Shown: one piece after another, positions 1 to 6,783 of the stretch
How the letters are laid out: each line of letters begins with the position of its first letter
Numbering within the stretch: position 1 is the first letter of the stretch
Virus record (IMG/VR): IMGVR_UViG_2713897055_000013
Source: a virus
Lineage: Duplodnaviria; Heunggongvirae; Uroviricota; Caudoviricetes
Direction: 5' to 3' (one strand)
Length of the DNA: 6,783 nucleotides
Translations under genes and position numbers: made by a program
Notes under the pieces: generated by a model
Databases searched by the model: none
What the model saw: the letters and a program-made list of their open reading frames with translations, nothing else
Told to the model about the DNA's origin: nothing

Positions 1-201
1 TTTCAGAGCGTTATAGATAGCCAGCCCTTCAAAGATGTCGCCACCAGGTGAATGAATGCTCAGATGGATTTCAGACACATTACCGCACGCGTTGATCTCG
101 TCAGTAAGTGCCGATGCCTTTACACCGTACCCGCCGATCTCGTCATAAATGCGCACATGTACAACATCTGCCATAGCCTTAATGGAAAACCATGTTTTCA
201 T
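1..201 (-). CDS. ClpP/SppA-clan serine protease, probable prohead/head-maturation protease; N-terminal 67 codons only, gene continues past the window start
   Basis: Minus-strand ATG at 199-201 with AGGAG (plus 209-213) 7 nt upstream; frame open to position 1. My translation: MKTWFSIKAMADVVHVRIYDEIGGYGVKASALTDEINACGNVSEIHLSIHSPGGDIFEGLAIYNALK. The I-x-SPGG-x5-G-x-AIY block is the conserved segment of ClpP-fold (S14/S49) proteases. The catalytic Ser lies outside the window. Confidence 0.7.
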   Translation of the reverse strand, partial: MKTWFSIKAMADVVHVRIYDEIGGYGVKASALTDEINACGNVSEIHLSIHSPGGDIFEGLAIYNALK

Positions 202-392
202 AGCCAGGCTCCTAACGTTGCCCTGTACCAGTATTCAACCGCGCTGCGTGTGATTTGTCCTTTCGTGGGCACTGGCATACCCGGGTGATTATCTTTGATG
301 AACTGCTGATAGCGTTCGATCTTCTCCATAGTTCCGGCGTCTATGTGTACCGTGGCACTTTTATCCGGCTTTCTGGTGTTGTTCTCTGGCAT
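198..392 (-). CDS. Hypothetical small protein (64 aa from ATG 390-392; tracked ORF extends to 425), translationally coupled to the protease
   Basis: GGAGG (plus 400-404) 7 nt upstream of ATG 390-392, whereas the upstream ATGs at 425/422 have no SD. Stop TGA overlaps the protease ATG (ATGA at 198-201). Product MPENNTRKPDKSATVHIDAGTMEKIERYQQFIK...; a beta-strand then helix pattern hints at a ribbon-helix-helix fold, unverified. Confidence 0.5.
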   Translation of the reverse strand: MPENNTRKPDKSATVHIDAGTMEKIERYQQFIKDNHPGMPVPTKGQITRSAVEYWYRATLGAWL

Positions 393-587
393 AAATCCGC
401 CTCCGTTTTGATTAACGGGCATCATTATTGATCGATAAAAGTAATAGATAAATCATTTTCTACCATAAAATCAGATTATGTTTTTTCTGATTATTCTCAG
501 AAAGGCAAAGTTATTGACGCATTTTTGCCATTGAAGCAGTATTAAGACTCGTCATCCTGGCGATAAAAACTCCTTTGTCGTGTAAAA

Positions 588-624
588 GCGCCTCCGGTAA
601 CAGCAATCGGGGGCGCTTTTTTTT
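588..624 (+). terminator. Intrinsic terminator-like hairpin followed by T8 (weaker in the minus orientation)
   Basis: GCGCCTCCG (588-596) pairs with CGGGGGCGC (608-616) with one G-U, loop about 11 nt, then T8 at 617-624; a second GCGCC plus T7 follows at 625-638. An A4 run upstream gives a weaker minus-strand reading. Confidence 0.5.
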
Positions 625-821
625 GCGCCTGTTTTTTTGTAAATGCTTTCGGGAACGCTCCAGTGATGAACAAAAAACAACCTGATTCGACACTAAAAAT
701 TTTTATTCTTCAATATATCAATAACTTATAGTGGTGGTGATGGTGCCATAAAAATCAAAAAATGCGCCTTTTTCCGCGCCCCTCCGCCCCGTGGACAGGC
801 CCCCCCCACCAGGAGTACCTA

Positions 822-845
822 CAAAAAAGCCGGATTGCTCCGGCT
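822..845 (-). terminator. Intrinsic terminator downstream of the PerC-like gene
   Basis: AGCCGGA (828-834), loop TTGC, TCCGGCT (839-845); on the minus strand the hairpin is followed by T6 (plus A-run 823-828). It sits 7 nt past the stop at 852-854. Confidence 0.5.
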
Positions 846-851
846 GTGTGA

Positions 852-1124
852 TTAGCTGTCTTGGTAATTACACCATATTTCATCGCTTACACCATCTATA
901 CCCATTTCAGCATAAGTGCGATCTACTGCCTTTCTCAGGTCTCCGAAGTTATCCGGCGGCTCCGGTGGCCTCTGTGCCTTCCTGGAACATTCCAGCCGTC
1001 GCATCGTAACCTGATGCCGTTCCTTGTCTGTCTCCACCAGCTGCATGACTTCACCCCATCGCGCCGCCGCCCTCCGGTAAAATCCTTTCGCCTCGAGTTC
1101 CTCCGCTATGCGGTCATGTATCAT
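852..1124 (-). CDS. PerC-family transcriptional regulator (Pch-like), 90 aa
   Basis: ATG 1122-1124 with GGAGAG SD 7 nt upstream. N-terminus MIHDRIAEELEAKGFYRRAAARWGEVM matches the A-x-x-LE-x-x-G-x-x-RRAA-x-RW signature I recall for PerC/Pch activators. Assignment is from memory of the family, not a search. Confidence 0.55.
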   Translation of the reverse strand: MIHDRIAEELEAKGFYRRAAARWGEVMQLVETDKERHQVTMRRLECSRKAQRPPEPPDNFGDLRKAVDRTYAEMGIDGVSDEIWCNYQDS

Positions 1125-1389
1125 CGCCTGACTCTCCGGTTTTTACGTTGATGGTTGTTACCTGTTCCGCTTCGGCAATCTCCCGTTCTGTCAACGTGGC
1201 AAAGTTTGCCGTCGCTGTGGTCATGAATGCGCTTATCAGTTCGGGATGCTCCTTCGCGTATCCTTCCCCCGCGTGGCGGTCTATTACCCTGATTGCCACC
1301 TTTAAGGCGTGCTCTGTCATGTCTAACGCTTTATATTTCGGCTCTGTTCTGTCTCTGCGCATTTTGGTTATCTCCTCACTCATGCTCAC
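1114..1389 (-). CDS. Hypothetical protein, 91 aa (GTG start at 1387-1389; in-frame ATG at 1381-1383)
   Basis: GAGGTG SD 5 nt upstream of the GTG; overlaps the PerC-like start by 11 nt; same strand as the operon. No family recognised. Confidence 0.45.
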   Translation of the reverse strand: MSMSEEITKMRRDRTEPKYKALDMTEHALKVAIRVIDRHAGEGYAKEHPELISAFMTTATANFATLTEREIAEAEQVTTINVKTGESGDDT

Positions 1390-1576
1390 TTTTACACCTC
1401 ACTTTTTAAAGCGTCTCGCTTCGTCTCACTTGATATTTTTTGATGCTTTATGTGTGTGTTTCATAAGGATTTTTTTTACTCCTCACTTTTGAGCATGTAT
1501 ACAGGTGAGAAAGTGAGTAATCGTGTTAATATTTTGTAAAAACCTCACCATTACTCACTTTTTCTACTCACTTTTT
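1385..1576. repeat. Iteron-like array of CTCAC(T)n repeats flanking an AT-rich core; putative island replication origin
   Basis: CTCACTTTT-type copies at 1385-1393, 1398-1407, 1425-1431, 1482-1490, 1544-1548, 1554-1563 and 1567-1576, plus two inverted GTGAG copies at 1505-1509 and 1513-1517. AT-rich, T-run-rich spacer at about 1430-1480. The array starts at the stop of the 469-aa ATPase gene. Confidence 0.55.
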
Positions 1577-2984
1577 ACAGTGGTCCTACATCATCACCAT
1601 CAATGTAAATCACGGCGTCTTTTTCCAGTTTGGCTAACCATCGCCGCATATTTTTCACGTCATACCCAAGCCGTTTCATGTCATCACGTAACAGCGGGAT
1701 CGTGCACTTGTCGCCGTTCTGTGTGCGTGAACGGATGCACCCCCATAGTGCGGTATGGTTTTCCGTCTTGTTGCCTGCCTCCTCGATGCGTTCCAGTTCA
1801 ACGGGAGGGCGCGGCTTATCCACCACCACCAGCGACGTGATTAACTCCCCGTCAGCGTCGGTAAACAACTCCACCACGCGTAAGTCATATGCGGCTTCTT
1901 TGAGTTCCTCCGCGTCCTTCATTTTGGTGCATGAGATAACCAGCGCTTCGCTTCCTGCGTCCTCCCTGCGTATCCGGTATTCAGCATCCAGTGATGCACG
2001 AAATGCACTGGAACCGCGCGCGCCTTTCGTCTCATCCTTGCCGGAATGGTGAACCACCAGCACCGTGGCCCCTGTGCGTCGTTTCAGTTCGTCACAACCA
2101 CGGATAAACGCCCCCATATCACGGGAATCATTTTCATCATTCCCACCAAAGCAACGCGCCAGCGTATCCAGAATAATCATGCGTACAGGTTTACCCGTTT
2201 CCCGCTCCACCTGACGGGCAGCGATAACCATTTCATCAACATCAAGCGGGACCGCCGGAAAGATGGGACGGTTTACCAGATACAGATTTTTCACCTGCTC
2301 ACCGTGCACAACCTCCCAGGCTTTTACACGACGCGGAACGCCGATACCGCCTTCACCAACCACATAGAGAACAGCGCCATGCGCCACCCTGCGGCCTCCC
2401 CACTGGCGGCCCGTGGAAACGTGACACGCCCACGATCCGGCAAGGAATGATTTATAGGAACCGCTCGCCCCGTATATGCTGCAAAGCGACGATGCCGGAA
2501 TAATCCCCTTTACCACGTAATCAAGCTGTGTGTCGTATCCGGTAGATCCAACGCTCATCGGTAGCGTGGTTTTTCGCTGGGGGATTTTTTTCATGACCAG
2601 GCTTTCCCCGCGTTCCCATGCCTCCCTAAGCCGTGGAAGCTGGTCGCTCCATTCCTCCAGCAATTCGAAATTTTCAGAAAGTAGCCGCGCCTCCTGGACT
2701 CCGGCGATCGCCAGTTTCGTGGCGATGGTTAACAGCTGCGGCTCTTCAATATTTCCGGCGCGTATCACCGTCGCCCTGTATCGCCCATCATCAACAATCT
2801 GGAGGTTATCCAGTTCGCTTAACTGATAACGCCCCAGATAAACGGGAGGGACTGGATCGCCTGCTTTTTTGGCCTGTGCAATGATGTAATGCTCTGCGAA
2901 TGAGTGAGCATCAATACCCGCAAAAATAATCGCATCGGTGTATTTGTCTTGCGGTAATCGTTTTACGTTCGGTGCCAGTTTCAT
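1575..2984 (-). CDS. RecA-fold P-loop ATPase of the AAA_25 / RepA-DnaB-like type, 469 aa; putative island replication initiator/helicase
   Basis: Long ORF with GGGGT SD 6 nt upstream of the ATG. P-loop-like IYGASGSYKSF (aa 172-179), Walker B-like VRMIILDTL, then VLVVHHSGKD and GSSAFRASLDAEYRI blocks typical of RepA-like RecA-fold ATPases. About 100 aa of C-terminal extension could be a DNA-binding domain. Followed directly by the iteron array. Confidence 0.85.
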   Translation of the reverse strand: MKLAPNVKRLPQDKYTDAIIFAGIDAHSFAEHYIIAQAKKAGDPVPPVYLGRYQLSELDNLQIVDDGRYRATVIRAGNIEEPQLLTIATKLAIAGVQEARLLSENFELLEEWSDQLPRLREAWERGESLVMKKIPQRKTTLPMSVGSTGYDTQLDYVVKGIIPASSLCSIYGASGSYKSFLAGSWACHVSTGRQWGGRRVAHGAVLYVVGEGGIGVPRRVKAWEVVHGEQVKNLYLVNRPIFPAVPLDVDEMVIAARQVERETGKPVRMIILDTLARCFGGNDENDSRDMGAFIRGCDELKRRTGATVLVVHHSGKDETKGARGSSAFRASLDAEYRIRREDAGSEALVISCTKMKDAEELKEAAYDLRVVELFTDADGELITSLVVVDKPRPPVELERIEEAGNKTENHTALWGCIRSRTQNGDKCTIPLLRDDMKRLGYDVKNMRRWLAKLEKDAVIYIDGDDVGPL

Positions 2985-3280
2985 TTTTTACCCCTGAATA
3001 CGTTAAGCATCTTTTTTATTTCCTGAATATTGGCGCGTGCTTTCTCCCTGCTGGTTGGTTTACTGCGGGGCGCTGCCTGTACCAGAGAAAAATCACGATC
3101 GAACTGATAAACAGGCATAACGCAATCATATTCGTAGCCTTCACGGCGGTAAGTGATGCGCCGTTCCTCCACGCCTTTAATCGTTACCGTGCCGCCGTAC
3201 TGGTCGCGGTAAATATCACCGCGCGTAAATTTAGGGTGAGTGTTGCCACTGGCAGTTAAGCCAGAATATTTAAGTTTCAT
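2981..3280 (-). CDS. Hypothetical protein, 99 aa, translationally coupled to the ATPase gene
   Basis: Stop TGA overlaps the ATPase ATG (ATGA at 2981-2984); GGAG about 9-10 nt upstream of ATG 3278-3280. No family recognised. Confidence 0.6.
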   Translation of the reverse strand: MKLKYSGLTASGNTHPKFTRGDIYRDQYGGTVTIKGVEERRITYRREGYEYDCVMPVYQFDRDFSLVQAAPRSKPTSREKARANIQEIKKMLNVFRGKK

Positions 3281-4151: not shown

Positions 4152-4224
4152 AACGGCTCCTCGTTTACGTTGTTGGTTAGAAGCCCGTTGGTGTTCATAG
4201 CGCCAGCGGGCTTTGCTTTTGTGG

Positions 4225-4294
4225 TGTCATTGGTATACATTGTCACCGTAAGGCCATTATTATACTCGAGGTATACAATGTCAACCAATGACAA
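4225..4294. promoter_or_regulatory. Divergent control region with nested direct and inverted repeats (operator candidate) and overlapping promoter hexamers
   Basis: 14-bp direct repeats GGTATACATTGTCA (4232-4245) and GGTATACAATGTCA (4270-4283). 10-bp inverted pair TGTCATTGGT (4225-4234) and ACCAATGACA (4284-4293). On the minus strand a perfect TATAAT (plus 4259-4264) and TTGACA (plus 4279-4284), but only 14 bp apart. The second repeat overlaps the SD and ATG of the RHH gene. Confidence 0.45.
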
Positions 4295-4454
4295 CAAAAA
4301 GGAAAGGTTTTCCGTACAGCTTCGTCTTGATGCTGACTTATTCGAACGCTTAAGCATCGCCATGAAAGAAGATGGCGATGATAACCGCTCAGGATGGATA
4401 AAAAGGCTTTTGCGCCGTGAGTTGGATAAACGCGGCATAGAATCAAAAGAATAA
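4278..4454 (+). CDS. Ribbon-helix-helix (CopG/Arc/MetJ-like) DNA-binding protein, 58 aa; candidate island repressor
   Basis: ATG 4278 with GAGG SD (4268-4271) 6 nt upstream. Product MSTNDNKKERFSVQLRLDADLFERLSIAMKEDGDDNRSGWIKRLLRRELDKRGIESKE shows the strand-helix-helix pattern. Divergent from the main operon with repeats over its own start. Confidence 0.6.
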   Translation: MSTNDNKKERFSVQLRLDADLFERLSIAMKEDGDDNRSGWIKRLLRRELDKRGIESKE

Positions 4455-4836: not shown

Positions 4837-5045
4837 TTAAGCGGTCGTTCCGCGCGCTTCTTGTTCGCGTTCTTTCATCCATGCGATTACGTCTTCCTCA
4901 TACCATCCGCGACGGCGCAAACCGACACGAAAACCCTGCGGGAATTCTCCGGCGTTGATCATGCTTTGCAGCGTGCTGTCTGCCTTAATGTGGATAAGTT
5001 TTTTTTACTTCCTGGCGAAAGATGACTTTTTTTGATTGCTTCCAT
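4837..5045 (-). pseudogene. AlpA/excisionase-family-like small regulator interrupted by a frameshift at an A8 run (pseudogene or frameshift-dependent gene)
   Basis: ATG 5043-5045 with GAGGT SD 8 nt upstream opens a frame (MEAIKKSHLSPGSKKN...) that stops at 4959-4961. The -1 frame continues from the A8 run (plus T8 4999-5006) as ...LIHIKADSTLQSMINAGEFPQGFRVGLRRRGWYEEDVIAWMKEREQEARGTTA to a stop at 4837-4839. That C-terminal segment resembles the AlpA/Xis recognition-helix and wing region. Confidence 0.45.
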
Positions 5046-5541: not shown

Positions 5542-6783
5542 CTAAACGGCTCGGATACCCCTTTTACCACTGGCGAGGGTTACGCCCGTCGCCGCAGCCT
5601 CGACAAATTCGCCCCACCAGCGCATAAGCACGATGCGTTTTTCTATGTAGTTGCTCCGGTTGTATGCCCGTCTGACTTCGTTGGTGTCGACGTGGGCAAG
5701 TGCGGCCTCTATTACGTCCGGCTCAAAGCCTTCTTCGTTCGCTGCTGTGCTGAATATGGCGCGTAATCCATGAGACACCAGCACGCCAGCGAATCCCATG
5801 CGTCGTAATGCTGCGTTAGCGGTCTGGCTGTTCATCGGCTGCTGTGGGTCTTTCAGACTCGGGAAAACATAATCGCGGTGGTGGCTGATTGGTTTCATAG
5901 CCTCCAGCACTGCCATAGCCTGGTCACAAAGCGGGATAACGTGGTCGCGGCGCATCTTCATGCGTCCGGCGGGTATGGTCCAGCGTTGCGCTTCCATGTC
6001 GATTTCTTCCCAGCGTGCCGACGATGCTTCAACGGGACGGGTTACGGTCAGTAACTGCCATTCAATCAGTAATCTGGTCTGCCGTTCTGTTGCCGATACT
6101 GATAAAGCCTGCATAAGCTCCGGCAGCTGTTCGGGGCGGATTGTTGGCATATGTTTTTTTACAGGGGAGGGGAACGCCTTACGCACATTCATAGCCGGAT
6201 TGGCATCAATCATCCCACTATTGGCGGCGTAATCCATTACCTCATTTATACGCTGTAAAACTCGCTTGAGCGTTTCCAGGTTGCCACGTTCCTTGATGGG
6301 GGTAAGCACCTCAACGAACCTGCGAGCGGTCAGGGTGTCTATTGGCGTGTTGCCGATGAACGGGAATACATATTTTTCCAGCGATCGCCAGATGTCTTTA
6401 ATCGTATTGGGGGCCAGATTCTGGCTGATTTTCACCTGGTACCATGCTGTTGCCACATTTTCGAACGTGTTCCCTTGTCTTCGGGCCTCTGTCTCTCTTT
6501 TTTGCCTCTCGTGGTCCTGTGGGTCAGTTCCGGCACGAATTAACGCCCTGTACTCGCTACGGCGTTTTCTGGCATCAGCCAGGGAAACATCATCAAGCGA
6601 TCCAAAACTCAGCAATATTCTTTTTTTGTCCGATGGTCGGTAGTAGGAAAATCTCCAGAGTTTTGATCCGGACGGTTTGATCAGGAGAAAAAGCCCTCCG
6701 CCGTCCTGTAGGGTGTATTCCTTTTCTGCTGGTCTGGCTGCTTTGATCTGTACTGTGGTTAATGGGGGTGTTTTTCTCGCCAT
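5542..6783 (-). CDS. int: Tyrosine recombinase, P4-type integrase (N-terminal arm-binding domain plus C-terminal catalytic domain), 413 aa
   Basis: N-terminus MARKTPPLTTVQIKAARPAEKEYTLQDGGGLFLLIKPSGSKLWRFSYYRP matches the characteristic start of P4-family integrases. C-terminal HGLRAIFST (H-x-x-R) and a terminal RAYNRSNY block fit the catalytic region. ATG is 6781-6783, so upstream signals and the att site are outside the window. Confidence 0.9.
   Translation of the reverse strand: MARKTPPLTTVQIKAARPAEKEYTLQDGGGLFLLIKPSGSKLWRFSYYRPSDKKRILLSFGSLDDVSLADARKRRSEYRALIRAGTDPQDHERQKRETEARRQGNTFENVATAWYQVKISQNLAPNTIKDIWRSLEKYVFPFIGNTPIDTLTARRFVEVLTPIKERGNLETLKRVLQRINEVMDYAANSGMIDANPAMNVRKAFPSPVKKHMPTIRPEQLPELMQALSVSATERQTRLLIEWQLLTVTRPVEASSARWEEIDMEAQRWTIPAGRMKMRRDHVIPLCDQAMAVLEAMKPISHHRDYVFPSLKDPQQPMNSQTANAALRRMGFAGVLVSHGLRAIFSTAANEEGFEPDVIEAALAHVDTNEVRRAYNRSNYIEKRIVLMRWWGEFVEAAATGVTLASGKRGIRAV

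Follow-up and report, generated by a model that had tools for sequence, protein, structure and literature searches.

At positions 852-1124 of the window (the whole stretch of 6,783 nucleotides analysed here) lies a perC gene on the minus strand, co-oriented with all the island genes up to the integrase except a divergent plus-strand gene at 4278-4454. Read 5' to 3' on the minus strand, the order is integrase, a small ORF, an AlpA-like HTH gene, the divergent RHH/YlcI-like gene (plus strand), an icd-like gene, several small ORFs, DUF4222, an AAA_25 helicase, an iteron stretch, orf85, perC and a terminator, and 3' of the terminator follow a 396-bp AT-rich spacer, orf75 and the start of a ClpP-protease/major-capsid fusion gene. 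The main features are as follows.

5542-6783, minus strand: integrase, 100% identical to WP_000101906.1, with Phage_integrase domains.
4256-4284, minus strand: sigma-70-like promoter, TTGACA-17-AATAAT, near-consensus (11/12) in a promoter scan.
2981-3280, minus strand: DUF4222 gene.
1575-2984, minus strand: RepA-type replicative helicase (AAA_25; PF13481, E 1e-43), named 'helicase RepA family protein' in RefSeq.
1380-1580, no strand: probable replication origin, AT-rich (34% GC), with seven AAGTGAG iterons, between rep and orf85/perC.
1114-1389, minus strand: orf85 (phrog_1231), immediately upstream of perC; 85 aa when read from the RefSeq ATG (1114-1371).
1132-1137, minus strand: Shine-Dalgarno-like GGAGAG, 7 nt 5' of the perC ATG (1124-1122), by direct reading of the sequence.
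852-1124, minus strand: perC/pchE-type gene, 90 aa, ATG start; an ORF with a full-length Pfam PerC match.
822-845, minus strand: intrinsic terminator, hairpin AGCCGGA-GCAA-TCCGGCT (845-828) plus T6, from a terminator scan and RNA folding.
426-821, no strand: AT-rich spacer (GC 35-43%) between the terminator and the capsid module.
198-425, minus strand: orf75 (phrog_4934), start of the morphogenesis module.
From about 200 and running off the window, minus strand: 5' end of the ClpP-protease/major-capsid fusion gene, from the annotation of locus L001 and Pfam.

The family assignment of the gene lies far above chance level. In the Pfam profile search, residues 1-89 matched model positions 1-89 of 90 of PF06069 (PerC) with an E-value of 1.2e-43 (147.8 bits against a curated cut-off of 22.6), and the protein also matched phrog_994 (E 1.2e-45), so that the preliminary description was right to place a PerC-family regulator here. 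In an alignment of 53 PerC-family sequences, L10, E11, R17 and A19 are invariant and D4, A7, G14, R18, R22, W23, C46, M74 and G75 are conserved in at least 90%, and the window protein carries every one of these residues. Its DNA is 100% identical to the gene for WP_000581018.1 of E. coli MDP9-27, a protein named 'PerC family transcriptional regulator' in RefSeq. Compared with two O157 alleles the gene has a pN/pS of 0.20-0.47 and, judged from the sequences, the family is under purifying selection. Relatives in the phage collection are rare (5 of 50,697 records) and, at 36-39% identity, distant from the window protein. Scanned against Rfam at E <= 1, the full window yielded only three sub-threshold matches of chance level, none of them at perC.

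The preliminary description had also spoken of a satellite-like island, and the integrase, AlpA-like HTH gene, AAA_25 helicase and downstream iterons bear this out. By its gene content the element has the layout of a Gram-negative PICI, that is, unidirectional int, alpA and rep with the origin downstream of the replicase in a small, site-specific island. MDP9-27 is the closest complete genome, matching 94% of the window at 98.6% identity, and its copy of the island, about 9.5 kb long, is inserted between tRNA-Pro (beside yejM) and yejO; the island has one capsid gene and lacks tail and lysis genes, and the window reaches neither of its ends. The full fusion protein (L001:12312-14201) has 629 aa with the Pfam domains CLP_protease and Phage_capsid_4, and its gene is the sole morphogenesis gene of the island, with a 75-aa ORF before it, a conserved 93-aa ORF after it and no portal or terminase. 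Two +1 insertions in A-runs (A7 in place of A6, A8 in place of A7) put the alpA-like gene (4837-5045, minus strand) out of frame compared with its intact 68-aa counterpart in MDP9-27, the 231 aligned nucleotides being otherwise identical; the insertions are either sequencing errors or an inactivation of the island's inducer.

Layouts of about 9.5 kb with a lone protease-capsid fusion recur in many genomes. At three further loci (L025 and L027, from CP027449.1 and JAWVHI010000001.1, and L018) the same island type sits inside the large-terminase gene of a prophage, which is split with GpA_ATPase on one side and GpA_nuclease on the other, and the hosting prophage has a portal gene and its own protease-capsid fusion gene next door. 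Such terminase insertion is the helper-embedded PICI configuration described in PMC10111431. Induction by a helper phage, replication and packaging have been reported for EcCICFT073 and EcCIEDL933.

Several features suggest how perC would be transcribed. The motif AAGTGAG is matched seven times, always inside 1385-1573, against 0.66 matches expected by chance; the iterons (six on one strand, one inverted) flank an AT-rich core, the last two overlap the first codons of the longest orf85 reading, and the stretch, which also holds the repeat families D1 and D2, is the likely origin. The orf85 DNA occurs in 1,567 genomes of E. coli. The promoter-like site at 4284-4256 is the only near-consensus one on the minus strand, with none comparable between it and perC, and the best sigma-70-like candidate found directly upstream of orf85/perC had only 8/12 matches. 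The site at 4284-4256 is thus the likely start of a transcription unit that ends after perC. Since the start of perC overlaps the stop of the co-oriented orf85 by 11 nt, and given the common orientation, the single strong promoter-like site and the terminator, we infer from the sequence that perC is indeed the last gene of the rep operon, as had been proposed, and that it directly precedes the first strong terminator of this leftward unit. The same promoter-like site overlaps the 5' end of the divergent gene at 4278-4454 (plus strand), which encodes a 58-aa ribbon-helix-helix/YlcI-YnfO-like protein; the plus strand holds, at 4180-4214, a 16-bp hairpin whose tail is rich in T, and window positions 4180-4454 may be an island control region.

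The terminator has a GC-rich stem of 7 bp and a GCAA loop followed by TTTTTTG, and begins 7 nt past the perC stop codon. Its attribution to perC as the gene's own does not hold. The hairpin AGCCGGAG[C/A]AATCCGGCT with a T-run recurs at the junctions between modules in many E. coli PICIs (in the window and at L003, L004, L017, L018 and L019), where it is placed after PerC, SSB, orf85 or a further small ORF, depending on the island. In islands that lack PerC an identical hairpin follows SSB or orf85, so that it closes the early module where SSB or nothing replaces PerC, and the homology of these islands to the window stops at base 845 (the hairpin) or 869. O157 islands carry two copies, one after pchE and one after the next ORF. 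Because the hairpin occurs after SSB, after an empty slot and after a truncated SSB, and twice in O157 islands, the terminator is a shared module junction. An intrinsic terminator 3' of PerC was also sought in 12 loci that are not of the E. coli type, with none obvious, and the tight pairing of PerC and terminator is therefore specific to E. coli-type islands. The junction hairpin may act as a recombination point for the gain or loss of cassettes.

The distribution of the gene agrees with an exchangeable slot. A spacer probe for the capsid module (window 150-822, at least 80% coverage) was present in 144 of 5,426 complete E. coli genomes, with perC adjacent in 20; the other 124 have no adjacent perC of the window type. 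In these the slot holds SSB alone in O121 RM8352 (L018) or a truncated SSB in E. coli 042 (L003), and in strain 08-00022 (L019) it is empty after orf85. Strain 08-00022 carries a PerC gene of a second type at the distal island end beside yejO (L019:785-1087, minus strand), coding for 100 aa and 50% identical to the window type (Pfam PerC, E 4.5e-23), and PerC genes therefore occupy at least two positions in such islands. Conversely, PerC proteins sharing 90-95% identity stand before morphogenesis modules of three unrelated kinds, namely a protease-capsid fusion, a set resembling lambda E/D and a full set resembling that of HK97, and homology breaks exactly at the terminator, so that PerC does not co-vary with any downstream promoter. 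A search for motifs common to the regions 3' of perC in the three module types found nothing beyond the terminator hairpin. Spacer 426-821, with promoter-like sites whose -10 boxes are good and -35 boxes weak, travels with the capsid module, not with perC. The best-supported reading of this distribution is that perC is an optional island cassette, required neither for replication nor for capsid expression.

Two further observations concern the DNA downstream of perC. A hairpin at 584-626 in the spacer has 13-nt arms that are 92% complementary, with a long T-run on the plus strand and a short one on the minus strand, and coincides with a weak, sub-threshold Rfam match to ctRNA_p42d (E 0.074); it may terminate transcription in both directions or form the 3' end of a small antisense RNA. 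A palindrome, AATCAGA/TCTGATT, seen by eye upstream of two capsid modules at differing spacing, is unproven.

Beyond E. coli, a narrower PerC alignment gathered 12 loci from other species, spread over about ten genera of Enterobacterales. Here the layout is int-alpA-AntA-Ash-primase, and PerC, co-oriented with a tyrosine integrase 8-9.5 kb upstream, comes directly after a replicase that is a DUF927/Toprim primase, with or without SSB or ProQ. The genes after PerC in these non-Escherichia islands are variable, with no recognizable morphogenesis genes directly downstream. The island of Pantoea septica (L014:10001-10114) has a PerC pseudogene with a premature stop at codon 38. The recurrence of this post-replicase place in satellites of about ten genera hints at a role tied to the island.

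Among named proteins, the window PerC is closest in type to PchE. Amino acid identity is 94.5% with the E. coli O157:H7 Sakai protein PchE (ECs_1588) and 91% with PerC from the island of O157:H7 FRIK2533, and on this sequence evidence the window protein is of the group 3 (PchE) type. The Sakai gene is part of 'prophage Sp7; untypable', a 15.4-kb element flanked by roxA and phoQ that fits the published description of the cf-PICI EcCIEDL933 and has the order integrase, small ORFs, primase, orf, SSB, pchE, orf, head, protease, portal, adaptors, terminases. Both proteins have 90 aa, both genes occupy the slot after replicase, origin and orf85 (with SSB in addition in Sakai) and ahead of the morphogenesis genes, and both are followed by the same terminator hairpin. 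However, the Sakai island has a primase where the window island has the RepA-type helicase, an SSB gene before pchE, an extra ORF and second hairpin after it, and a full capsid-portal-terminase module where the window island has only the protease-capsid fusion gene. In EcCICFT073, too, a PerC-family gene directly precedes the capsid genes. Alleles of PerC in E. coli PICIs have already been published (PMC6092414, PMC11773190), and the arrangement is the published norm among E. coli PICIs rather than anything unusual. With the gene annotated as PerC in RefSeq, a near-identical PchE already studied and PerC in PICIs already reported, the original finding is correct but ordinary.

The published functions of the PerC subtypes differ. 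EPEC PerC and EHEC PchA/B/C (group 1) share PF06069 and the core LE..G..RRA..RW...C with the window protein and are, as it is, small horizontally transferred regulators, but group 1 proteins activate LEE1/ler and the PchE type does not. O157 has five perC homologues in three groups; according to PMC6265319 and PMC7369912, only group 1 (pchA-C) is needed for ler/LEE expression, whereas pchD (group 2) and pchE (group 3) have little LEE effect and are dispensable for ler/espA. Over-expression of pchE brings strong repression of csgD, curli and biofilm together with higher motility and flagellar expression; these phenotypes all come from plasmid over-expression, and deletion changed curli only slightly (PMC6265319, PMC7369912). 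Another relative, EcCIMP1_025 (Pick et al. 2025), is likewise a PerC-family gene in a Gram-negative PICI with int, alpA and primase, although its backbone is of a different type (AntA/Ash/DUF927 primase, as in loci L007-L016), and it has been tested as a trans regulator of host virulence genes. In Citrobacter rodentium the EcCIMP1 protein, which shares about 40% identity with the PerC-like genes of EcCIEDL933 and EcCICFT073, silences LEE1, and it is possibly ANR-like, as its authors suggested (PMC11773190). According to the same paper, citing Porter 2005, the PerC-like genes of EcCIEDL933 and EcCICFT073 left LEE1-lacZ unaffected.

The predicted structure fits with action through protein contacts. 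An AlphaFold model built on the 53-sequence alignment is confident (pLDDT 85), with helices at 5-13, 16-29, 33-50, 60-74 and 80-84, and the window protein is accordingly predicted to be all-helical and without a helix-turn-helix. No solved relative came out of a sequence-profile search of the PDB, which gave just a weak match of chance level to a helix of ribosomal protein uS3, and Foldseek against BFVD gave nothing at E <= 0.001 besides a known Klebsiella phage homologue. The NCBIfam model ANR_neg_reg (NF033650) matched the window protein over model positions 9-54 of 54 with an E-value of 0.0023, its 17.7 bits lying below the curated cut-off of 32, and matched 39 of the 53 PerC-family members at E <= 0.01 (best 5e-07), which suggests a remote relationship between PerC and ANR rather than membership. 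Proteins of the ANR family, which bind H-NS and regulators of the AraC type (PMC4983702, PMC5570504), are built of three conserved helices and carry the published signature residues A10, E14, A22, W26, A29, W43 and R47 (PMC4983702). In the alignment, PerC A7, E11, A19, W23, R42 and C46 fall on ANR A10, E14, A22, W26, R47 and C51 (PMC4983702); the equivalent of ANR A29 is V26 and that of W43 is Q38 in the window allele, with W at the latter position in many relatives. PerC would thus share with the ANR family (Aar, Rnr, Cnr) a three-helix N-terminal domain with the pattern A-x3-E-x7-A-x3-W ... R-x3-C, and a PICI PerC-like protein acts on LEE as a repressor (PMC11773190). The window protein differs in being longer by about 35 residues, with an extra conserved C-terminal helix and an MG(I/L) motif and, unlike ANR systems, its island shows no sign of a partner AraC-type gene. 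From these similarities, the first 50 residues of PerC would form an ANR-like N-terminal domain acting via protein contacts.

Taken together, we consider it probable (about 0.6) that the gene, as final cistron of the early operon, encodes an optional trans regulator of the PchE type that makes ANR-like protein contacts with host regulators. The early/replication unit would run from the promoter at about 4284-4256 through the icd-like gene, the small ORFs, DUF4222, the helicase, the origin and orf85 to perC, with translation of perC probably coupled to that of orf85 and transcription presumably ending at the junction terminator common to many islands. By analogy with its relatives, PerC would then act in trans via contacts with H-NS/StpA/Hha complexes or AraC/XylS proteins, and not as a classical activator, with csgD and curli down, flagella up and LEE unaffected or down as the expected outcome. 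Such a contact mode seems the most likely one for the window PerC, and island-borne control of host genes, implied by the preliminary description, is plausible. With alpA frameshifted, expression through induction of the island may be lost in the window copy.

A different possibility is that PerC regulates the life cycle of the satellite itself, de-silencing or activating the AT-rich promoter region of its own capsid module or helper late genes; made at the end of the early operon, it would resemble an early-to-late switch. The morphogenesis module directly follows perC in EcCIEDL933/Sp7, EcCICFT073 and the FRIK2533 island as well as in the window, the 12 loci of other species keep PerC co-oriented and directly behind the primase, and the family is nearly absent from isolated phages. 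The AT-rich spacer with its poor -35 boxes would suit a silenced late region, and PchA-C are anti-H-NS factors that activate via relief of H-NS/StpA/Hha silencing (PMC4764244). However, most genomes with the same spacer and capsid module (124 of 144) lack an adjacent perC, the presence of near-identical PerC before three unrelated modules speaks against any specific pairing, at the DNA level, with a promoter downstream, and the non-Escherichia islands have no morphogenesis genes recognizable directly after PerC. Furthermore, the essential genes described for PICI induction and transfer are int, alpA and pri, with perC not among them (PMC10111431), the steady basal transcription of pchE in O157 drops on SOS induction (PMC6265319, PMC7369912), and when the EcCICFT073 genes after ori were cloned singly only c1503 affected lambda (PMC6739421). 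We therefore regard the life-cycle role, and its likeness to an early-to-late switch, as unlikely, and hold an anti-silencing function intrinsic to the satellite to be possible at slightly longer odds.

It is more doubtful still that perC is an unexpressed passenger, without current function, in a decaying island. The two A-run insertions in alpA and the lack of a strong promoter directly upstream of orf85/perC would fit such decay, but perC has an undamaged reading frame, matches the MDP9-27 allele exactly and belongs to a family under purifying selection, and two homopolymer insertions with no substitution in 231 nt resemble sequencing errors. Moreover, the 11/12 promoter-like site at 4284-4256 need not depend on AlpA, and in O157 pchE is transcribed at a basal level.

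That PerC here switches on ler/LEE1 in the manner of EPEC PerC and EHEC PchA-C, ler having been named as a candidate target in the preliminary description, is very improbable despite its family membership and the report that some PICI-coded PerC homologues activate LEE (PMC6092414), since at 94.5% identity to PchE it belongs to group 3, for which the papers cited above give little or no LEE/ler effect, the EcCIEDL933 and EcCICFT073 genes have none on LEE1-lacZ as there cited, the relatives in the phage collection are so distant, and close relatives occur in non-LEE isolates from spinach and ground beef.

For the biology of these islands, the window PerC subtype is not to be read as a LEE activator, perC sits in an exchangeable slot bounded by a common terminator hairpin, and its presumably ANR-like N-terminal domain leads to a concrete partner hypothesis, H-NS or AraC-type proteins. 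The normal location of the family is apparently the post-replicase position in satellites, with few members in isolated phages. The part of real interest would be only the satellite-intrinsic anti-silencing role, if true. It is a rather improbable but conceivable proposal that three-helix proteins of the PerC/ANR type are native to Enterobacterales satellites, where, produced late in the early operon, they counter H-NS-type silencing of the satellite's own AT-rich late region or of helper genes while the island is being induced. If this is true, virulence regulation by PerC and PchA-C, and the effects of PchE on the host, would be by-products or co-options of a satellite anti-silencing factor.
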